DNA of 59,183 nt from Chthoniobacteraceae bacterium (GCA_031409335.1 JANNWY010000230.1:1-59183), one strand, 5' to 3'; positions 21,161 through 39,320 are shown, counted from the first letter of the stretch. Notes: generated from the letters alone by a model not told the origin. A program made the numbers and translations.

Positions 21161-24100
21161 ATGCTCCGCAAAACCCTTCCCCTTGTGGCTTTGTGCCTCG
21201 CGCTCACCCTCTCATCTGCCTCGGCTCAAAACGTCGTCATCCACGAAGTTAGCTCCGTGCAGAGCGACCGGCGGCTGCAATTTCCGCCCGGCGCGCTGCC
21301 GAAACTGGGGGCGCTGCCGCGCTGGCACGAACTCGATTTCACGCTGCCCTCGTGGTGGCAGAGCGGCGCGGGGCCGTTTGGATTTGGCTACACTCAGACG
21401 GCGAATTTGCAGACGCCGATGGTCGGGAAAACGCCAGCCGTGTATTTGCGGAAAGAGTTCACGCTTTCCGCCGCCACGGCGGCGAGCGCGCTGCCGCTGC
21501 AATTGCTGATCGATTACGACGATGGCTTCGTCGCGTTCCTAAATGGGCAGGAAATCGCGCGACGGAACACGGGCGCGGCGGGGACTTTCGCGTGGCACTA
21601 TCAGGAGGCTTTTAATGTGAAGACGGCGGCTGGCACGGAGACGATCGCGCTCGGCGCGGGGAGCACGCGGCTGCGCGAGGGACTGAACGTGCTCGCGATC
21701 CAGGTCCACAACAGCGACCGCGCGAACACGCAACTGCGCTGCGCCGCGACGCTCGCGTTCAGCGGTGGAGCCACGCTCGTGGCCGCGGCGGATTCGTGGA
21801 GTTACTTCGTGGGCACGCACGAGCCGGCGGGCGGACTTTACGACGGCACGGATTTCACCGCTGCCCTCGCGCCCGGCCCGGACTGGACGCAAAACAACTA
21901 TGCCGATGCGACGTGGACGCTCGCCAACGGCGCGCTCGGCTACGACGCCGCCGCCGACTACGTGCCGCAGCTCGGCACGAATCTCACCGCGCTCATGCGC
22001 AACATCGCGATGAGCGTTTACATGCGGCGCGAATTCACGCTCACGCAGTCGCAGTTCGACCAGCTTTCCGCGACGACGCTCACGGTCGATTGGGACGATG
22101 GTTACGTGCTCTATCTCAATGGCTATGAGCTTTCGCGGAGCAGTCTCCCCGGCGCTTCGGGGAGTTTCGTCGCGTTTAATCAGGCGGCGACCGGCCACGG
22201 CGCGCAGTTCGACGGCGGGGCGAACAATCCCGCGCTCGTCGCGTCCATCCCGGTCGCAAAAAATCTGCTGCGCGTCGGGCGCAACGTGATTTCCGCGCAG
22301 TTGCACAACGAGACAATCGGCAGCTCGGACCTGCTGCTCGACGTGCGTTTCAGCGGCGTCAGCAGTGGCAATACACTGACGTGGGTGACGCTCAGTTCGC
22401 CGTGGCGCTACCGGATCGCGACGAGCGAATTCGCCACGCCCGCGGTGCCGGCCGCGGGGCTCATCGCGCCGGAGTTTTTGGATTGGATCGAGCTGAAAAA
22501 CAACGGCGTCACCGATGCGGACATCAGCGGGTGGCTGCTCACCGATGAGCTGGACACACCGGCGAAATGGGCGTTCCCGGCGGGGACGACGATTCCGGCG
22601 GGCGGTTTTTTGGTCGTCGCGTGCAGCGGGCGAAATGTGGTCGCGCCCGCGCCGGGCGGGATGTTGCACACCAGTTTTTCGCTCGGCGCGAAAGGCGAAT
22701 ATCTCGCGCTGCGCGATGCCGCGAACGTGATCCAGAGCGTGCTCCCGGAAGTGCCGGATCAGGATGCGTTTCATTCGTGGGGCGTCGATGCGGGCAGCGG
22801 TCAATACCGCTATCTCGACGCCGCGACGCCGGGCGCGGCGAACGTCGCGGGCACACTCACCGACATCACGAGCGAGGTTAATTTTGACAAGCCGACCGGC
22901 TTTCACACCACGCCGCTGACCGTCGCGCTCTCGACGCTCACGCCCGGCGCGAGCATCCGCTACACGCTCGATGGCAGCGATCCGGTGAGCACGAGCACGC
23001 TCTACTCCGCGCCGTTCGATCCCACCGTGCAACCCGCCGTCGGCCCCGGCGCGGGCACGATTTTGCGCGAGATGTTCCAGTGGAACTCGGGCACTTTCGT
23101 GCCGCCCGCGAGCCTGCCGCCGGGCGCGGTGCCGACGGTTTCGCAACTGCTCACGCAACTCGAAACACCGAGCAACACCAGCGACTATTACACCCATCGC
23201 GTGCGCGGTTTCCTGCATCCGCCAGCGACTGGCAGCTATCAGTTTTGGCTCGCGACGGACGACGATGGCGAGCTGTGGCTGAGCACGACGAATCTTCCCG
23301 TCAACAAAGCCCGCATCGCCCACATCACCGGCAACTGGGCATCGCCGCGCGAGTGGACGAAGCATCCCACGCAGCAGTCCGTGCCGGTGGCACTGACGGC
23401 GGGGCAATCGTATTACATTGAGGCGCTCCAGAGCGAGGGCTCGGGCGGCGACAATCTCGCCGTCGGCTGGAGCGGCCCCGGTCTGCCCGCGGGCATCAAT
23501 GTCATCGAAGGCCGCTACCTTTCCCCGCCCTCGACGCTGCCGCCGGGCACCACCTCGCCGCCATCGCAGGGCACCGTGCGCGCGCGCGCATTCGCGGCAG
23601 ATCGGCTGCCGAGTGAAGTGCGGACGCGCAATTATGTCACCGGCATGGACGCGCGGCTGGCGACCGTGCCCGCGTTCTTTTTCAGCGGCCCGGCAGCGGA
23701 GACTTTTTACAATGGCAACGGCATCTTCGCGCAGTCCGGCGGGAGCTGGCCGTCGGGCTCGTGGGTGCCGGGCGACGCGCGCTTCGACTACAATTTCTGC
23801 CTCGCGAACGGCGATGCTTTCGAGCGGCCCGCGTCGCTCGAAATCGTGAATCCCGGCAACGTCATCCTCGAACGGACGACGGTCGGGATGCGCTTCGCCG
23901 GATCGCCGTGGTCGCGCCCGCAGTATCAGCTCCAAAATGTGGCGACGAGCCAGTGGAATTCCGGCGCGCACAACAAGCCGCAGGTGAACCTCTGCTTCCG
24001 CGGCGACTTCGGAGTTTCCACTTTGAAGATCAACAATTTTTTCCCGACGAGCACGCTCGACGAGTGGGACACGATCCGGCTGCGCGCGGGAAAAAACGAT

Positions 24101-25963
24101 CCCTACAACCCATTCAATGTCGATGAGTGGATGCGCGAAAGTTTCGCCGGAATGGGCGCGCCGTCGCCGCAGGGCACGATCGCGACGCTGTTCATCAACG
24201 GGCAGTTCAAGAGTTACTTCAATCCGTGCGAGCGCCCGCGCGAATCGTTTTTCCAGAGCTTCTACGGCAGCGGAAACGCGTGGGACGTGAACTACATTTG
24301 GGAGTGGGAAAACGGCGACGGCACGGCCTACGCGGTGATGGACACGTTCTTCCGCAACAATGATTTCGCGACGCTCGCGAACTACCAAACTGGCGCGACG
24401 CATTGGGACATGGCGAACGTCGCCGACTACGTGATCATCAACGGCTGGGGCGCGACGCAGGACTGGCCGCACAATAATTTCACCTTCTGCCGCGAACGCG
24501 CACCGGGCGCGAAATGGCGCTGGTCGATGTGGGACGCGGAGGGCGCGCTCGGGATGTTCGGGCAGGCGAATACGCACAACTCTTTCGAGAGCGAGCTGCA
24601 CGTTTCCAGCGCGAGCGCCATCAACTCGGAGGGCACCACGGCGGCGCTCGTCTTTCGCCGTGCGCATCAAAACGCGGAGTTCAAAATGCTCTTCGCCGAC
24701 CGGCTGCAAAAACACTTTTTCAACGGCGGCTGCATGACGCCCGCGAACCGCGATGCGCGCTGGAATGCGCTGCGCGCGAAAGTCGAGCCGCTCGTGAATG
24801 CGGTCTTCGGCGGCGGCTTTTACAACGGGCATTGGGACAACTGGCTGGGCCGCGACGCGACCTTCCTCGCGCAGGCGCGCGCCATTGGCCTGTGGCCCGT
24901 CACGCAGGCTCCGACGCTGACGCCCTTCGGTGGCGCGGTGGCCGCGGCGACGCTGGTGAACCCGAACGCGGGCGGCGTGATTTATTTCACTACAAACGGC
25001 GCGGACCCGCGCGCGGTCGGCGGTGCGATCCAGGGCACGAGCTACACCGCTGCGATTCCGGTGACCGGCCCCTTTACCGTGAAAGCGCGCGTGCGCAGCG
25101 TGGGCGGCGAGTGGTCGCCGCTCGTCGAGGCGGACTTCGCGCCATCGCAAATCCCGCGCGTGATCATCAGCGAAATGCACTACAACCCGCCCGGCTCCAC
25201 TGACGCGACCGAGTTCGTCGAGCTGCTCAACGCTGGCACCACTCCGGCGCAATTGAACGGCGCGCATTTCACCTCGGGTATCGACTACACCTTCGGAAAC
25301 GTGACGCTCGCGCCCGGCCAGACTTTCGTGCTCGTGAAAGACGCGGTCGCTTTCGCCGCCGCGTATCCCGCCGTGACGATCGGCGGCGTCTTCACCGGCG
25401 CGTTGGATAACAACGGCGAAACGATCACCTTCCGCGATATCGCCGAGCAGATTATTTTCAACGTGACGTACGGCGACAGCAACATCCCCGGCTGGCCGAT
25501 CGCCGCCGATGGCGACGGTTCGACGCTCGTGTTGCGCCGTCCCTTTCACACCAACACCAACCCAATGCTCGCCGCAAACTGGCGCGCGAGCACGACCGCG
25601 GGCGGCAAGCCCGGCACGGTCGATTCCACCGTCTTCACCGGCACCGCGACCGCCGACCTCGACAAGGACGGCCACACCGCGCTGGCGGAATACGCGTTCG
25701 GAACCAGCGACGCAAATCCCGCCTCATGCCCGCAATTCGCGATGAGCCGCGACCTCGCCGGCCATCTTGTCATCACGTTCGATCATCCCGAGGCTGCGGA
25801 CGACGTGGTGCTCGAAGGCATCGAAAGCACAAATCTCAGCGCGTGGTCCGACGCGGTTTTTGAAAGCGAAACCGTGGCCTCGCCTGGCTGGCTGCGCGCG
25901 ACATGGCGCTCGAATGCGACCGGCTCACCCGCGTTCCTAAAAGTGCGCGTGCGGCTGGAGTAA
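21161..25963 (+). CDS. Large secreted lamin-tail / PA14 / chitobiase-like / CotH-kinase multidomain protein
   Basis: Signal peptide; DWIELKN and ISEMHYNP..EFVEL (LTD); IRYTLDGSDP; GFLHPPATGSYQFWLATDD (PA14); DWPHNN...WSMWDAE (CotH); ATG at 21161. Confidence 0.85.
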   Translation: MLRKTLPLVALCLALTLSSASAQNVVIHEVSSVQSDRRLQFPPGALPKLGALPRWHELDFTLPSWWQSGAGPFGFGYTQTANLQTPMVGKTPAVYLRKEFTLSAATAASALPLQLLIDYDDGFVAFLNGQEIARRNTGAAGTFAWHYQEAFNVKTAAGTETIALGAGSTRLREGLNVLAIQVHNSDRANTQLRCAATLAFSGGATLVAAADSWSYFVGTHEPAGGLYDGTDFTAALAPGPDWTQNNYADATWTLANGALGYDAAADYVPQLGTNLTALMRNIAMSVYMRREFTLTQSQFDQLSATTLTVDWDDGYVLYLNGYELSRSSLPGASGSFVAFNQAATGHGAQFDGGANNPALVASIPVAKNLLRVGRNVISAQLHNETIGSSDLLLDVRFSGVSSGNTLTWVTLSSPWRYRIATSEFATPAVPAAGLIAPEFLDWIELKNNGVTDADISGWLLTDELDTPAKWAFPAGTTIPAGGFLVVACSGRNVVAPAPGGMLHTSFSLGAKGEYLALRDAANVIQSVLPEVPDQDAFHSWGVDAGSGQYRYLDAATPGAANVAGTLTDITSEVNFDKPTGFHTTPLTVALSTLTPGASIRYTLDGSDPVSTSTLYSAPFDPTVQPAVGPGAGTILREMFQWNSGTFVPPASLPPGAVPTVSQLLTQLETPSNTSDYYTHRVRGFLHPPATGSYQFWLATDDDGELWLSTTNLPVNKARIAHITGNWASPREWTKHPTQQSVPVALTAGQSYYIEALQSEGSGGDNLAVGWSGPGLPAGINVIEGRYLSPPSTLPPGTTSPPSQGTVRARAFAADRLPSEVRTRNYVTGMDARLATVPAFFFSGPAAETFYNGNGIFAQSGGSWPSGSWVPGDARFDYNFCLANGDAFERPASLEIVNPGNVILERTTVGMRFAGSPWSRPQYQLQNVATSQWNSGAHNKPQVNLCFRGDFGVSTLKINNFFPTSTLDEWDTIRLRAGKNDPYNPFNVDEWMRESFAGMGAPSPQGTIATLFINGQFKSYFNPCERPRESFFQSFYGSGNAWDVNYIWEWENGDGTAYAVMDTFFRNNDFATLANYQTGATHWDMANVADYVIINGWGATQDWPHNNFTFCRERAPGAKWRWSMWDAEGALGMFGQANTHNSFESELHVSSASAINSEGTTAALVFRRAHQNAEFKMLFADRLQKHFFNGGCMTPANRDARWNALRAKVEPLVNAVFGGGFYNGHWDNWLGRDATFLAQARAIGLWPVTQAPTLTPFGGAVAAATLVNPNAGGVIYFTTNGADPRAVGGAIQGTSYTAAIPVTGPFTVKARVRSVGGEWSPLVEADFAPSQIPRVIISEMHYNPPGSTDATEFVELLNAGTTPAQLNGAHFTSGIDYTFGNVTLAPGQTFVLVKDAVAFAAAYPAVTIGGVFTGALDNNGETITFRDIAEQIIFNVTYGDSNIPGWPIAADGDGSTLVLRRPFHTNTNPMLAANWRASTTAGGKPGTVDSTVFTGTATADLDKDGHTALAEYAFGTSDANPASCPQFAMSRDLAGHLVITFDHPEAADDVVLEGIESTNLSAWSDAVFESETVASPGWLRATWRSNATGSPAFLKVRVRLE

Positions 25964-29284: not shown

Positions 29285-30634
<1,350 letters not shown>

Positions 30635-30813: not shown

Positions 30814-31488
30814 TCATGCCGACGGCGTTTTACGAAAGCGTGTCCTGGTGCCGAAGCAGAGTCCGCCGAGCATCAGCAGGCCAGCGGTGGCCGGTTCTGG
30901 AACGGAGGGAGTCGAGACGGTGTAGGAAAACCGCTGGACCTGAGTATCGGGGAAGCCCGGGCCCGCGCCTGCGGCAACAGTGTTCGGCGTCAGCTCGATG
31001 GTGTAGATGCCATTTGGCGTCGTTGGCAGCACCAGCAGCATGAGATTGGCAATATGAAAAGTCCCTGCGCCCAGTGGAACGTTGATGTCCGCAAGGCTGC
31101 CGCCTAAGTCGTGATTATTATCGGGATCGAGCGTTGCACTCGCCGCGCCGAGCGCCACGCCATTGGTTGTGATTAAGTCGCTGAAAGGAGAGCCCGTGAT
31201 ATCGCGACCGATGAGCCGGAAATGTTCATTGCCAATACTCGCGGTGGGATCGGTTAGAAAATAGGTCAAACCCGTGGTTTGATCACCACCGGATATAAGC
31301 GTCACATTGATCGAAAACGGCTGCCCGGCATCTCCAGAACCGACGCTCGGGGTTCCATCATTGTCCGTGAGTGTGACCATGACTGCTGAATGGCCGATGC
31401 CTGCCGCAAGGAGCAGCGCGGCAATGCTGCCAGTTAGAGTTAGTATCCGTTTGGTGTGTCCGGCTTGGTAGGTGTTTGTGTTGTTCAT
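30814..31488 (-). CDS. PEP-CTERM protein with a single beta-sandwich domain, possibly cohesin-like
   Basis: Signal peptide; about 160-aa beta-rich domain (FSINVTL, GTFHIANLMLLV, GIYTIEL); VPEP + hydrophobic helix + basic tail. Confidence 0.75.
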   Translation of the reverse strand: MNNTNTYQAGHTKRILTLTGSIAALLLAAGIGHSAVMVTLTDNDGTPSVGSGDAGQPFSINVTLISGGDQTTGLTYFLTDPTASIGNEHFRLIGRDITGSPFSDLITTNGVALGAASATLDPDNNHDLGGSLADINVPLGAGTFHIANLMLLVLPTTPNGIYTIELTPNTVAAGAGPGFPDTQVQRFSYTVSTPSVPEPATAGLLMLGGLCFGTRTRFRKTPSA

Positions 31489-31528
31489 ATGTTTTGGGTG
31501 GAGTTGCGGATGAGTTCTGAGTCTGAAA

Positions 31529-34507
31529 CTAGGGAAGGGAATTGCCGGATTTAGATTTGGCTATGTTCACATCGGAGATATTGATCGTGCCAGAGGCGTT
31601 CAAATCCCGCCGGAAATTCGTCCCATCCACCGTGCCGGGCGATGCGCCCGCCTTGACGAGGTTGATGTCGGAAACGTTGACGCTGCTGCCCGCGTTGACA
31701 TCACCGTGAAGGACCTTGAAGCGGAGCACGGGAATCAACGTCGCACCATTCACGTCCGTCACTCCATTCAGCGTGACTTCGAGTGGTTGCACGTCATTCA
31801 CGCCTGCGAGGCTGACTGCGATTTCGTTGCCGCTGATACTTGAGATGTTTGCTGTCGGGACCCCGGATGCACCAGTAACAGTCACTCCACTTGCGCTTGC
31901 GATATTACTGCTGAACGCAAACACAAGGCTGTAGGCGGGGCCAGTGCGGCATTCGATGCCTCCGCCAGCGAGCGGCAGCGCAATATCGAATGTGCCGGCT
32001 CCGCCGTGGGGTTTCCTGGAAACGACACCAGTTACTTGCAGCAAAGGAGCGGTGCAGCACGCGGGCAACGCTGTCGTAATGCCCAGCGTGAATCCGCCGG
32101 CGACCGTGCCGAGATCACCGGCGGCGGTGTCGTTGATAAATAGTGACCAAGTGCCGTTCGGATTCAGACCATTGTAAGCGGATAGCAATGAACCATACGG
32201 GCCGATGGGCGCGGGCGCAGGGAGCGTGTTGCTGGAAAAGCTGCTGGGTGTGTAGGTTCCAGTCGTGATCGTCGAACCCGAAGGCAGCCCTGAGCCGGCT
32301 GAGTCATCGAAAGTGAGGGTGACATTGCTCACAGGGAATCCACCGCCAGCGGCTGACATCAGCATCACTTTCTGCCCAGCAGGTCCGGTCAGCAGGACAT
32401 CGAAATCCGCTGGGAAGGTGTGAGTCAGGCTATTAAGTCGCGCTGTGACCTTGGTGACTGTGCCGGTTACGCCGGATACGACTCGTGGAGAGGGATACGG
32501 GGACGCCGTGCCAGAGTCGGGGATGCTGATTGCGCCGGCATTGGTAAATGAGGTAGTTGTGGCGGATGTGGTGCCCAAGACGAATGGGAAGCTGACAGTC
32601 CCCAAATTACTCGCACCATCCTGCAGTTGCAGAGTGGCAGTCAAAGTGGCACCACAGATCCCGGTGGCTGTGAATGTGAACGCACGGGTAGCTGAGGCAC
32701 CGCCGACCAGCGCACCATAGTTCTTTGGGGAACTCGGTGCTGCAACCCCACCTGAAACCTGCAAAGTTGCGACTAGATTGGTCGAGGGAAGCGCGCCGAT
32801 ATTTCTCAGTGCAAAGTTAAATGTCACGGTTTCGCCCGGATCGACAGCGCTGTTCGCTGGCGGGCAGTTCTCCGCGAGCAGCGTGGAACTGAATGCCTGA
32901 ATGACCGTGGTGTTCGGCGTGTTGGAAAGCGTCAGGCCCACGGAATAAAGTTGTGCGTTATCAACGCCGTTTCCAAATACTCGGACATAATATGGACCCG
33001 ATCCGCTCGGTAGAGGGGTGGTGGGAATTACTTCGGCCACGCCGGCTGCATTGAGGTTCGCGGTTCCCAAAACGGTGACTCCATTGGTATCGAGCAATTG
33101 GACGCCAAGGTTTGTGATGATTAGTGAATTGAACAGCGTCCCCGCCGAGCAACTCCCGTCGTTGTTTTGGGGTCCTTCGAGGTAAGTGAATCCGACTGGT
33201 GTGATGGTGACCGCGGCGCTCTTGTTTCCCGGAGCCACGGTGAACGAGAAGAAGTCAACGTCGAGGTTGTCATCAATGCTGACATCCTGGACTGAATAGG
33301 TGCCATTCGCCAGCGTGAGTCCCAGGCTGGTGGCGGTTGGCGCGGTATTGTTGTTCTCGGCGCTGTCGCCATAGCCTCGCATACCGCCGAGTCGGTCATC
33401 ATGCTGGGGTCCATCGAAATTAAGGTTGATGAATGGTTCCATCAGTTTGGTATTGTTGGTGGGACAGGTGTGAAACAGGCCGATCCCATGCCCATGTTCG
33501 TGCGAGAGCACATTGCGCAACCTGAGCGAGCTATTGGAGGTATCGCTATAAAAATTGTCGGCCGTGTCGATGACCATGTCGCCCGTATTCGGGAAAAAAT
33601 TATACGCAAGGATGCCGCTGTTCCCGTCGATGAAATGCCCGCCAATGCGAACATCTCCGCGAACTCCCAGCGCACCCCCGCTTCCCGGAAAGGCTGCGCC
33701 GTCGTCGGTGGGTTGATAGACGTAGGTGAGCCCGGTCAGATCGCTCCAGCGATCGAACATCTGCTGATACAACGCCTGCCAGACGGCCTGACTGCCGTAG
33801 ATGCCATTGAGAAACGCGATGAGATTGCTGGGAGCGGACGGTTCGCCCGCGCCATTCGCACCGCCGGGGATGATCGTCCCGTCGGGAATGAAGCTCCACG
33901 TGATCACGGTTGGATCGCCCTGCTGCAATCCGCCTCCGCTCGTCGCCGTTGCTCCCCAACGCGTGCCCAGACGGTAGAGATCAAGGTCGGGCCGCTGATG
34001 CGCCGCATAGAACGCCGCCATGGTGGCTTTCGGAGTTCCGGGCGCAAAACACACCGCGGGAAACACGGCGCTCGTATCGATGCGGCGCGCGTTTGCCGCG
34101 AAATTCTTTCGACGGATCGGAGCGACCGTTACCGATGCGTGATTGAAGGAGGAAACCTCAAGTTTGAGCGACAACAGTTCTGATTCGCCGAGTGAAATGA
34201 CATCCGCCGCATCATCGAGAGTGGAAAATAGACGGAACGGTGCCTCGCCGCCAAAGGGCGCAGAAGTGTCCCCGATTTTGTGCGTTCGCTGGACGAGTTG
34301 CGGTGAATTGCAGCAATTCGCAGCGGATCGATCCACATTGTCAGGCAGCGCACTCTCCGCTATCGCGCCACTGTTGAGCCGCCCGCTGCCTGGGTTTTCT
34401 GCCTGCCGCGTGACCCGCACGGAGCCCGCATCGGAGCAGGCACAGAGCGAGATGAATGCCGCCAACATTGAGATACTCTGCCGTTTGCCAAGTTTGCTTA
34501 TGTTCAT
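31529..34507 (-). CDS. Secreted matrixin (M10-like) zinc metalloprotease with P-domain and C-terminal dockerin-like module
   Basis: HEHGHGIGLFH zinc motif and LMEP Met-turn; P-domain (LTHTFPADFDVLL, NGTWSLFIND); paired GDVN...VNVSD / DLNASGTINISD repeats; AGGAG RBS before ATG 34507. Confidence 0.85.
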   Translation of the reverse strand: MNISKLGKRQSISMLAAFISLCACSDAGSVRVTRQAENPGSGRLNSGAIAESALPDNVDRSAANCCNSPQLVQRTHKIGDTSAPFGGEAPFRLFSTLDDAADVISLGESELLSLKLEVSSFNHASVTVAPIRRKNFAANARRIDTSAVFPAVCFAPGTPKATMAAFYAAHQRPDLDLYRLGTRWGATATSGGGLQQGDPTVITWSFIPDGTIIPGGANGAGEPSAPSNLIAFLNGIYGSQAVWQALYQQMFDRWSDLTGLTYVYQPTDDGAAFPGSGGALGVRGDVRIGGHFIDGNSGILAYNFFPNTGDMVIDTADNFYSDTSNSSLRLRNVLSHEHGHGIGLFHTCPTNNTKLMEPFINLNFDGPQHDDRLGGMRGYGDSAENNNTAPTATSLGLTLANGTYSVQDVSIDDNLDVDFFSFTVAPGNKSAAVTITPVGFTYLEGPQNNDGSCSAGTLFNSLIITNLGVQLLDTNGVTVLGTANLNAAGVAEVIPTTPLPSGSGPYYVRVFGNGVDNAQLYSVGLTLSNTPNTTVIQAFSSTLLAENCPPANSAVDPGETVTFNFALRNIGALPSTNLVATLQVSGGVAAPSSPKNYGALVGGASATRAFTFTATGICGATLTATLQLQDGASNLGTVSFPFVLGTTSATTTSFTNAGAISIPDSGTASPYPSPRVVSGVTGTVTKVTARLNSLTHTFPADFDVLLTGPAGQKVMLMSAAGGGFPVSNVTLTFDDSAGSGLPSGSTITTGTYTPSSFSSNTLPAPAPIGPYGSLLSAYNGLNPNGTWSLFINDTAAGDLGTVAGGFTLGITTALPACCTAPLLQVTGVVSRKPHGGAGTFDIALPLAGGGIECRTGPAYSLVFAFSSNIASASGVTVTGASGVPTANISSISGNEIAVSLAGVNDVQPLEVTLNGVTDVNGATLIPVLRFKVLHGDVNAGSSVNVSDINLVKAGASPGTVDGTNFRRDLNASGTINISDVNIAKSKSGNSLP

Positions 34508-36516: not shown

Positions 36517-36996
36517 CTACACGATCGCCGCTGCCTTTTCCGCGTCGAAAAATGGCGCGTAAAGCTCGCGATGGCGCTGCAACGTTCGACGGAAAACGGG
36601 GCGGAGCGTCATGACATCGGGCAGGCCGATGACGAGATCGACGCTTGCCGCGAAGGACTGCATCGCGTCGCCAGTCGCGAATTGCGAGCCGATCAGGACG
36701 ATGAACTGTCGGCGGCGCTGCGCCGGTGGAACGCCGGTGGCGGTGAGGTAAATCGGGCAGGTCTCGTAGTGGACGGCGTTGAAATTCGCCGAAAGCACGA
36801 TGACGTCGTAGTGATGCGTGCGCATCTTCAGCAGGATGTCATCGGGGTAAAGGCCGGTGTGGATTTTGTAATTCAGCTCGCTGAATTGCGCAACGATGAG
36901 GTCGCGAACTTCGGGCACGTCGTGGCAGACGAGCAGGGTAAGATCGCCGGGTTCAAACAGGTCCAGCCGGTTGCCGCTTTCCATCGTCGTGATCAT
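36517..36996 (-). CDS. Hypothetical receiver-like protein coupled to the pilT operon
   Basis: ATGA overlap with the upstream gene; alternating beta/alpha pattern (LLVC, YDVIVL, FIVLIG). Confidence 0.65.
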   Translation of the reverse strand: MITTMESGNRLDLFEPGDLTLLVCHDVPEVRDLIVAQFSELNYKIHTGLYPDDILLKMRTHHYDVIVLSANFNAVHYETCPIYLTATGVPPAQRRRQFIVLIGSQFATGDAMQSFAASVDLVIGLPDVMTLRPVFRRTLQRHRELYAPFFDAEKAAAIV

Positions 36997-38195
36997 TTGG
37001 CGTTGATGCGAAGGTTCGAGTTTGATTCCGACTTCGTCGCGGAGGCGTCGAGATCGAGGCGCAGGCCGAGCGGCTTTTCATCCACGAGGCCGCGCGCCTT
37101 GTTGATGTCGTCGATGTAGCGCGTCATGCGCGCCTTGTTGGTCGCGTAGAGATCGGCGACTTCGGCGTTGATGCTTCCGTCGGCGTAGCTGCGTCCGAGT
37201 GATTGATCGAAGGTCGTCCATCCGAACGTCGCGTTTGCCTCGACGATGTCGTAAAAGCTGCGCGCCTCGCCTTCGCCGAGATTGATCGTCTCGCGAACCC
37301 GGAGATTCGAGCCGATGATTTCATTCACGAGCGCGCGTCCGCCGCTCACTTTCGGCACAAGCCGCTGGCTCACCACCCAGCGCAGCGTGTCCGCGAGCCG
37401 CGTGCGGAGCTGGCCTTCCTCTTCACGCGCAAACATCCCGAGGATGCGGTTGATCGCCTGGCCGGCGTTGATCGTGTGAATCGTGCTGAGCACGAGATGG
37501 CCGGTCTCTGCCGCGGTCAGCGCGATCTCGACCGTCTCGCGATCACGCATTTCGCCGACGAGAATCACCTTAGGCGCCTGTCGCAGCGCAGATCGCAGCC
37601 CACTCGGGAAGGAGTGAAAGTCGGTGCCCAGTTCGCGTTGGTTGAAGGTCGCCTTCTTGTGCTCGTGGACGAATTCGATCGGGTCTTCCAGCGTCACGAC
37701 ATGCACGGCCTGCTGGGCGTTAATCTCGTCGAGCATCGCGGAAAGCGTCGTCGTCTTGCCGCTGCCAGTCGCGCCGGTCACGAGGATGAGCCCGTTTTTC
37801 TCGCGGCACATTTCGTGGAAGATCGGCTGAAGCCCGAGCGATTCGATCGACGGCATTTCCTTCTGCATCTTGCGCATCACGATGGCGAAATTGCCGCGCT
37901 GTTTGAAAATGTTGACGCGAAACCGCGCGCGATCATCCAGCGCGTAACTGCAATCGCACGCCCCGCGCTGCAAGAGTTCGCGAAACAGCCGTGTGTCACC
38001 GCCGATCAATTGCATCGCGATCTGCTCGGTTTGATACGGCGAGAGTTGGGAAAGGCGCGGCTGGATGCTGGCGGGAACGAGCTGGCCGAAGGTTTCGACC
38101 TGAAAGGGTCGGCCTACGGTGAAATTGAGGTCTGAGATGCCATCATGCGTTTCGAGCATGTCGGCGAGGATGCAGTCTAGTTCAGTGCGGCGCAT
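36993..38195 (-). CDS. PilT/PilU-family type IV pilus retraction ATPase
   Basis: GATGSGKTT, EDPIE, ALRQAPKVILVGEMRD, ETGHLVLSTIHT. Confidence 0.92.
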   Translation of the reverse strand: MRRTELDCILADMLETHDGISDLNFTVGRPFQVETFGQLVPASIQPRLSQLSPYQTEQIAMQLIGGDTRLFRELLQRGACDCSYALDDRARFRVNIFKQRGNFAIVMRKMQKEMPSIESLGLQPIFHEMCREKNGLILVTGATGSGKTTTLSAMLDEINAQQAVHVVTLEDPIEFVHEHKKATFNQRELGTDFHSFPSGLRSALRQAPKVILVGEMRDRETVEIALTAAETGHLVLSTIHTINAGQAINRILGMFAREEEGQLRTRLADTLRWVVSQRLVPKVSGGRALVNEIIGSNLRVRETINLGEGEARSFYDIVEANATFGWTTFDQSLGRSYADGSINAEVADLYATNKARMTRYIDDINKARGLVDEKPLGLRLDLDASATKSESNSNLRINAK

Positions 38196-38197
38196 AA

Positions 38198-38240
38198 GTC
38201 ACATGGGTCACATGGGTCACATAGGTCATATAGGACTTAT
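38198..38240. repeat. 9-bp tandem repeat (GTCACATGG/GTCACATAG, about 4.7 copies)
   Basis: Fills almost the whole pilT intergenic gap. Confidence 0.85.
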
Positions 38241-39320
38241 CTAGTCTTCAAAGTCATCCGGCGGGCTCTTGAGGAAGACGCGGAATTTCTTCTTGTCGAT
38301 GGCTTTCTCGTAAGCCTCCTCGGGCGAGATCGTCGCCTTGCGCAGATGCTCCATGATGGCGTCGTCGAGCGGTTGGTTACCCTTCTTTTTACCGACCTGC
38401 ATCATGCCGGGAATCTGGTGGGTCTTGGCTTCGCGAATGAGGTTCGCGATGGGTGTATCGACGACCAGCACTTCGAGCGCGGCGACACGGCCGGGCTTGT
38501 CGATGCGTCGGAAGAGATTCTGCGCGACGACGCCTTTGAGTGATTCGGAAAGGCCGGCGCGCACCTGATTTTGCTGGTTCGCGGGAAAGACGTCGATGAC
38601 GCGGTCGATGGTTTTCGGCGCGCTCGGCGTGTGCAGCGTTCCGAAGACGAGATGGCCCGTCGCGGCGGCGGTGAGCGCGAGTTCGATGGTTTCCAAGTCG
38701 CGCATTTCACCAACGAGCACGATGTCCGGGTCTTCACGCAAGGCACCGCGCAGAGCTGAGGCGAACGATTTCGTATGCACGCCGACTTCGCGATGATTCA
38801 CGAGCGATTGCTGGCTGCGATGCACGAACTCGATCGGGTCCTCGACGGTGATGATGTGATCCTTCCGATGCAAATTCGCCCAATCGACCATCGCGGCGAG
38901 CGTGGTCGATTTGCCGGAGCCCGTTGGCCCCGTCACGAGTACGAGCCCCTTTTTCAACATCGAGAATTTTTTCAGCACCGGTGGCAGGCCGAGTTCATCC
39001 GCCGTCAGCACTTTGCTCGGGATGAGTCGGAACACGGCGGCGATGCCCGTGCGCTGGTTGAAGAAGTTCGCGCGGAAGCGGGCGAAGCCGGGATATTCGT
39101 AGCCGAAATCCACGTCGCCAGTTTCCTCGAACACTTTGATTTTCACCTCCGGCGCGATCTCATAGACGAGCGCCTTGAGGTCATCGTTTTCGAGCGGCGG
39201 CATATCCACGCGGACGAGTTCGCCGTGGATGCGGAGCATCGGTGGATTGCCGGTGGAAAGGTGAAGGTCAGAGGCGCTCTGCTCCTTCATGAACTTGAAG
39301 AATGAATCAATACGGGCCAT
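38241..39320 (-). CDS. pilT: Type IV pilus twitching motility ATPase PilT
   Basis: ASDLHL, GPTGSGKSTTLAAM, ALREDPD, GTLHT, NLIREAKTHQ. Confidence 0.95.
   Translation of the reverse strand: MARIDSFFKFMKEQSASDLHLSTGNPPMLRIHGELVRVDMPPLENDDLKALVYEIAPEVKIKVFEETGDVDFGYEYPGFARFRANFFNQRTGIAAVFRLIPSKVLTADELGLPPVLKKFSMLKKGLVLVTGPTGSGKSTTLAAMVDWANLHRKDHIITVEDPIEFVHRSQQSLVNHREVGVHTKSFASALRGALREDPDIVLVGEMRDLETIELALTAAATGHLVFGTLHTPSAPKTIDRVIDVFPANQQNQVRAGLSESLKGVVAQNLFRRIDKPGRVAALEVLVVDTPIANLIREAKTHQIPGMMQVGKKKGNQPLDDAIMEHLRKATISPEEAYEKAIDKKKFRVFLKSPPDDFED

Follow-up and report, generated by a model that had tools for sequence, protein, structure and literature searches.

Two adjacent genes of a Chthoniobacteraceae bacterium (GCA_031409335.1, JANNWY010000230.1:1-59183; the window is this whole stretch of 59,183 nucleotides) probably encode a plug and a socket for holding secreted proteins at the cell envelope. 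We propose that P0001, a small protein with one cohesin-fold domain and a PEP-CTERM tail, is processed by exosortase and attached to the envelope, where it would capture the dockerin of the metalloprotease P0002, as well as other proteins bearing the same tag. An earlier interpretation of the window (the sequence-only reading) had suggested that a PEP-CTERM cohesin tethers dockerin enzymes, and it is now supported by the predicted fold of P0001, the homology of the dockerin, the recurrence of the gene adjacency, and the presence of an exosortase.

Both open reading frames (ORFs) are encoded by the minus strand with 40 nt between them (31489-31528), P0002 at 31529-34507 and P0001 at 30814-31488, as the sequence-only reading had placed them. 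An AGGAG lies 7 nt ahead of the P0002 ATG at 34507. The spacer (31489..31528) contains no terminator-like site and is therefore consistent with P0002 and P0001 being on one transcript. P0001 had been read as a signal peptide, a beta-sandwich of ~160 residues, and a VPEP tail, and that architecture stands: the tail exceeds the cut-offs of PF07589 (21 versus 20.7) and TIGR02595 (19.4 versus 16), and the predicted structure of the domain is an elongated jelly-roll beta-sandwich of the cohesin type. Residues G39, D93, and G95 are conserved at 90-99%. The genome (7.9 Mb, 62% GC, 98% complete) encodes 165 PEP-CTERM-like ORFs, an exosortase above the TIGR02602 cut-off on C160, and three weaker exosortase homologs. 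How the homologs of the module are named, and their concentration in one order, make membership in Chthoniobacterales likely; a search for a 16S gene gave none. Each cohesin-fold protein of this genome has one such domain, and a single stretch was matched in 149 of the 150 homologs listed; the remaining one is a repeat protein that is not related. In 6 of 169 cohesin homologs (P0085, P0100, P0113, P0149, P0156, and P0168), a low-complexity linker and a Cys-Gly, transmembrane, and basic tail replace PEP-CTERM; this tail resembles MYXO-CTERM and scores under every NCBIfam cut-off.

The plug is a dyad of a beta module and a dockerin rather than a bare dockerin. The VSRKPHG motif and twin Ca-binding-like repeats that had been noticed at the end of P0002 are located at amino acids 829-835 (VSRKPHG), 935 (GDVNAG; nt 31705), and 968 (DLNASG). 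P0002 has the features of a type I-like dockerin, namely, two repeats of ~22 amino acids with F-hand Ca loops and Asp at loop positions 1 and 12. A profile built from 46 modules matches the Xyn10B dockerin 2ccl_B among PDB sequences (E 2.5e-9), its alignment reaches onto the CipA X-dockerin chains 2b59_B and 4wi0_B, and 45 of the 46 family members match Dockerin_1 at E<=0.05. Two paralogous dockerins of the same genome, at 37.9 and 27.9 bits, exceed the cut-off of this Pfam family (PF00404; 22.9 bits). The beta module matches no Pfam family of its own and is likely an X-module of the kind found in X-dockerin dyads.

Comparison of the two repeats adds a further line of evidence. According to the accessible part of one source (PMC8063739), positions 10 and 11 are known to determine specificity, and dual-mode binding rests on the symmetry of the repeats. 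Among 180 distinct dockerins that could be parsed by sequence pattern, ligand-type residues occupy loop positions 3, 5, and 9 in 165 and 166 of 180 repeats. Agreement between repeats is above chance at positions 3, 5, 9, 10, 11, 13, 14, and 17 (kappa 0.45-0.90), lower at positions 7 and 18 (0.26 and 0.32), and not beyond chance at positions 2, 4, 6, 8, 15, and 16. In 57 sister pairs taken from a tree of the beta module only, mirror changes number 10-16 per position at the first group of positions and 0 at the last. Synonymous codons match between repeats at 72 loci about as often as expected (330 matches versus 320.8), which argues against gene conversion. Symmetry at recognition positions, as in a dual binding mode, is thus present at the sequence level, and we infer selection for a symmetric dockerin binding surface, with a test that does not name the partner.

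Gene order suggests a candidate partner. This genome has four module genes and three copies of the cohesin domain (on C230, C93, and C235); a module gene immediately precedes each copy, and the three cargoes are unrelated. Only 3 of the 165 PEP-CTERM-like ORFs are at most 5 kb from one of the four module genes, and these are the three cohesin copies; none of the other 162 is. Adjacency in this genome therefore exceeds chance. For relatives, loci were taken from the best-scoring matches only, and distinct near-full-length cohesin copies were counted after the removal of partial domain matches. In 50 of 73 copies a module gene lies immediately upstream, at a gap of <=1.3 kb and with mostly 100-350 nt separating the domains, and two copies are fused to a module; a second batch added 7 upstream cases, 1 fusion, 3 copies without a module, and 1 truncated at the end of a contig. 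The recurring plug-then-socket order likely reflects a way for diderms to hold secreted proteins at the envelope. Among 401 genomes sampled from the order Chthoniobacterales, with profiles built partly from the same genomes, the module occurs in 70 and the cohesin domain in 50, all of them among those 70, and in 0 of 331 module-less genomes. When the richest family is excluded, the domain is in 15 of 20 module genomes and 0 of 310 module-less ones. An unpublished genome (G495) contributes one genome to each tally, two pairs to the second batch, and at most two dockerins to the symmetry sets; the conclusions are independent of it. Outside the order, in a Tepidisphaerales genome and in 2 of 2 metagenome loci, the domain gene stands head-to-head with a gene encoding an N-terminal module; a contig end cuts one of these loci.

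The same observations bear on whether there is binding at all. A cohesin-fold protein could be a structural PEP-CTERM protein, glycan binding or floc forming, that is co-regulated in a cassette with dockerin genes and does not bind their products, the dockerin serving another partner or Ca only. We regard this as very improbable. It leaves unexplained the absence of the domain from all 331 module-less genomes sampled, the adjacency across two gene layouts and two phyla, the direct fusions, and the mirror changes at dockerin recognition positions; moreover, a search of this genome turned up no further cohesin.

Several loci deserve mention in their own right. In G339, which holds 16 module matches, a cohesin-PEP-CTERM gene after a module gene (L089:12702-13162) is split over two frames, as a pseudogene or an assembly error, and short cohesin fragments occur in G659, G707, G580, and G470. 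At L087:1095-3992, an N-terminal X-dockerin is fused to CHRD and DUF1800 domains, head-to-head with a cohesin gene; a similar protein at L109:1572-4619 lies beside a DUF1501-like gene and is likewise head-to-head with a cohesin gene.

We envision five steps. First, the N-terminal signal peptides, recognized by eye, would export both proteins from the cytoplasm. Second, exosortase would cut the PEP-CTERM tail and leave the cohesin attached to the envelope, as expected from the family to which tail and enzyme belong. Third, Ca2+ would fold the dockerin, probably with help from the beta module, as in known X-dockerin dyads. Fourth, the dockerin would bind the cohesin; the symmetry of its repeats makes two alternative orientations likely. 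Fifth, each socket would hold one enzyme, and copy numbers suggest that sockets are probably shared among many cargoes.

Cargo is interchangeable across module-bearing proteins. The four in this genome are an M10 protease, a phosphodiesterase, a PA14/FGE/LamG protein, and an unannotated protein, and module-bearing homologs contain Kelch, S8, BNR/sialidase-like, LamG, cupredoxin, M36, metallophosphatase, and RHS domains. The full module occurs in only 1 of 119 homologs of the P0002 protease, the closest others carrying different C-terminal domains. Hence, of the protease display system that the sequence-only reading envisaged, the cohesin-dockerin part is supported, and the cargo is not confined to proteases. 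Module matches can greatly outnumber cohesin matches, fragments included (76 versus 8 in G659, 49 versus 6 in G707), and no multi-cohesin scaffoldin was found among the listed homologs, the inspected loci, or this genome.

These numbers bear on how the sockets are used. Each cohesin could be the private anchor of its own upstream enzyme, with other tagged proteins released, a variant of our proposal that keeps the binding. Tight gene pairing and the several distinct pairs per genome fit it, but neighbors show no co-evolution of specificity, tags far exceed sockets in some genomes, and one tag here, on C15, has no adjoining socket; we find private use doubtful. It is unlikely, too, that the cohesin serves in trafficking as a receptor, or as a tether in the periplasm, and the module as a C-terminal sorting tag, with cargo kept in the periplasm or passed on for export. 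The excess of modules over cohesins would suit a reusable receptor, the location of PEP-CTERM proteins is unsettled, and the module shares its slot on orthologous proteases with the RFYR and LANISTR domains described below. Against this, solved cohesin-dockerin pairs are very tight (association constant >1e9 per M, in the accessible part of PMC8063739), which suits stable tethering; the one-to-one cassettes (three sockets and four tags here) suit stoichiometric capture; and the module may also sit N-terminally. Returning to shared anchoring, we lean slightly toward a lineage-wide, two-tier display code in Chthoniobacterales and some planctomycetes, in which a few shared, monovalent, exosortase-anchored cohesins from a family without annotation serve up to dozens of X-dockerin-tagged proteins, and cohesin-X-dockerin fusions act as adaptors. 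Such a code would extend cellulosome-like assembly to diderms and would involve PEP-CTERM proteins directly in recruiting enzymes.

Variants of these architectures were also seen. Cohesin-X-dockerin fusions without a catalytic domain, like a monovalent adaptor scaffoldin, occur at L060:2512-3615 and L108:1797-2951 and in P0166. In P0058 and P0143, a single ORF combines a cohesin, a PEP-CTERM helix, an esterase-like enzyme, and an X-dockerin, so that the sorting signal is internal. Two other interchangeable C-terminal domains, one ending in RFYR and one starting with LANISTR, occupy the X-dockerin/PEP-CTERM slot of protease and cohesin homologs (the protease homologs P0293, P0294, P0296, and P0297; L043:1399-2202; P0164) and may be further sorting or docking tags. 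The fourth X-dockerin protein of this genome (L003:1261-3108; G000 C15) has no Pfam match and no adjoining cohesin.

A number of observations weigh against the proposed capture of dockerins by P0001. Pfam Cohesin (PF00963) does not match P0001, finds nothing in the whole genome, and weakly matches 2 of 141 P0001 family members; we therefore class P0001 by its predicted fold and leave it outside PF00963. A domain-only family profile matched no cohesin among PDB sequences, and a profile including the tails reached one at E 0.21 only. Residues 63-105 of the model form short strands and two small helices (DSSP), which may set the docking sheet apart from the regular 8-3-6-5 arrangement. The P0002 dockerin is borderline when taken alone, scoring under the PF00404 cut-off in the whole protein (17.2 bits; 19.8 for the module and 22.5-23 in the genome search), and position 5 of its first Ca loop is Gly, not a ligand residue. 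Twenty-one of the 73 cohesin copies lack an upstream module, and the tallies overstate independence, as the genomes are related. At E 1e-6, 20 of the 70 module genomes gave no cohesin match; of five searched again, four gave no match and one a weak partial match, and direct reading revealed divergent cohesin copies right after module genes in G662 and G452, both negative at that threshold, as is G339 with its split copy. When the beta module is accounted for, cohesin distance does not follow the recognition residues of the neighboring dockerin (partial r 0.02, permutation P = 0.37, 45 pairs), a result that fits shared sockets but also no binding. Finally, a surface location is unsecured, because Akkermansia PEP-CTERM proteins are richer in intracellular than in outer-membrane fractions, according to the accessible part of PMC4960237.

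As a monovalent anchor, P0001 can be likened to the sortase-anchored single cohesin ScaE of Ruminococcus flavefaciens (PDB 2zf9) and to the single type I cohesins OlpA and OlpC of Clostridium thermocellum (PDB 3ul4 and 4dh2). OlpA and OlpC are anchored through SLH domains in a monoderm host; they are 8-9% identical to the P0001 domain and lack adjacent gene pairing with changing cargo. The X-module/type II dockerin dyad of CipA (PDB 2b59 and 4wi0) also has its beta module immediately before the dockerin, and the profile alignment spans both; CipA's dyad, however, is on a scaffoldin, whereas the P0002-type tag is on enzymes and its beta module has no Pfam family. The cellulosome differs in having several cohesins per scaffoldin instead of one per protein and plant-wall glycoside hydrolases as cargo, of which there are none among the four cargoes here. 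Noncellulosomal cohesin or dockerin proteins are known from Archaeoglobus (2xdh), Clostridium perfringens (2vo8), and anaerobic methanotrophic (ANME) archaea, and the accessible portions of the sources describe no PEP-CTERM anchoring for them. P0001 resembles Zoogloea PepA-type substrates in its signal peptide, PEP motif, transmembrane helix, basic tail, and exosortase in the genome. Known PEP-CTERM substrates are, in the accessible parts of that literature, thought mostly structural and nonenzymatic; by contrast, P0001 would recruit enzymes that lack the tail. Full-text searches, with most subscription papers and supplementary domain-architecture lists outside their scope, found no paper joining PEP-CTERM with cohesin and/or dockerin, none joining exosortase and PEP-CTERM with dockerin, and none on Udaeobacter and dockerin. 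An exosortase-anchored cohesin for dockerin-tagged enzymes thus apparently has not been described before. Database entries combining a Pfam cohesin with PEP-CTERM exist in Proteobacteria.

These genomes abound in PEP-CTERM proteins (~165 here), most of them with no molecular role assigned; one family can now be given a testable job, the recruitment of secreted enzymes. P0001 relatives are also candidate partners for the many proteins that Chthoniobacterales annotations call "dockerin type I domain-containing," their cohesin being invisible to Pfam. Plug-and-socket systems have so far been characterized mainly in monoderm anaerobes and archaea. If our proposal is correct, uncultured Verrucomicrobiota retain at their envelope, in this way, dozens of proteins of protease, sialidase-like, phosphatase, and lectin type, and the P0001-P0002 pair would form a new class of cohesin-dockerin specificity.

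Features of the P0002-P0001 gene pair, in window coordinates (aa, amino acids; HMM, hidden Markov model; MMP, matrix metalloproteinase)
Feature	Position	Strand	Basis or remark
P0002 gene: likely secreted metalloprotease of 992 aa, M10-type (matrixin-like), ending in beta module and dockerin	31529..34507	-	Pfam, motifs, MMP matches
P0002 likely signal peptide, aa ~1-28, weak lipobox-like LCAC	34424..34507	-	By eye
P0002 VCFAPGT in pro-region, candidate cysteine switch	34034..34054	-	CF..GT pattern, 68/119 homologs
P0002 Peptidase_M10 match, aa 245-362	33422..33775	-	Pfam, E 2.8e-10
P0002 CARDB/DUF11-like beta domain, aa 553-622	32642..32851	-	HMM match below cut-off
P0002 proprotein convertase P-domain (P_proprotein), aa 686-802	32102..32452	-	23.4 bits versus cut-off 21
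P0002 VSRKxHG beta module, aa 827-932 (~105 aa)	31712..32029	-	Joined to dockerin in homologs
P0002 dockerin, two F-hand-type repeats, aa 934-992	31532..31708	-	Family profile and Dockerin_1
Intergenic spacer, 40 nt	31489..31528	.	No terminator-like site
P0001 gene: 224-aa single-cohesin-fold PEP-CTERM protein	30814..31488	-	PEP-CTERM HMMs, predicted fold
P0001 likely signal peptide, aa 1-34	31387..31488	-	By eye
P0001 cohesin-fold domain, aa 35-194	30907..31386	-	Sequence family undetected by Pfam Cohesin
P0001 PEP-CTERM sorting tail: VPEP, hydrophobic helix, basic end	30814..30906	-	PF07589 and TIGR02595 over cut-off

The protease itself is of the M10 metzincin type that had been recognized earlier, as evidenced by the zinc motif HEHGHGIGLFH (HExxHxxGxxH; aa 336-346, nt 33502-33470), the Met-turn LMEP (aa 355-358, nt 33445-33434), and the Peptidase_M10 match. 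The zinc motif is kept in 118 of 119 protease homologs, and P0002 matches MMPs, the best being stromelysin-3 (E 3.8e-7). Secretion is likely, with a signal peptide seen by eye. The claim that P0002 has no membrane anchor is no more than likely, given the weak lipobox-like LCAC in its signal peptide, whose Cys pattern is inconsistent among the closest homologs.

Elsewhere in the window, a same-strand gene upstream of P0002 (34716-36476, minus strand) has weak Peptidase_C25 and fn3 matches and possibly encodes a second secreted peptidase, one without a dockerin. Farther upstream, two adjoining ORFs (36993-39320, minus strand) resemble PilT/PilU ATPases by eye. A DUF1501 gene (29288-30634) adjoins the P0001-P0002 pair, and a large secreted CotH/LTD/PA14 protein is encoded at 21164-25963 on the plus strand.
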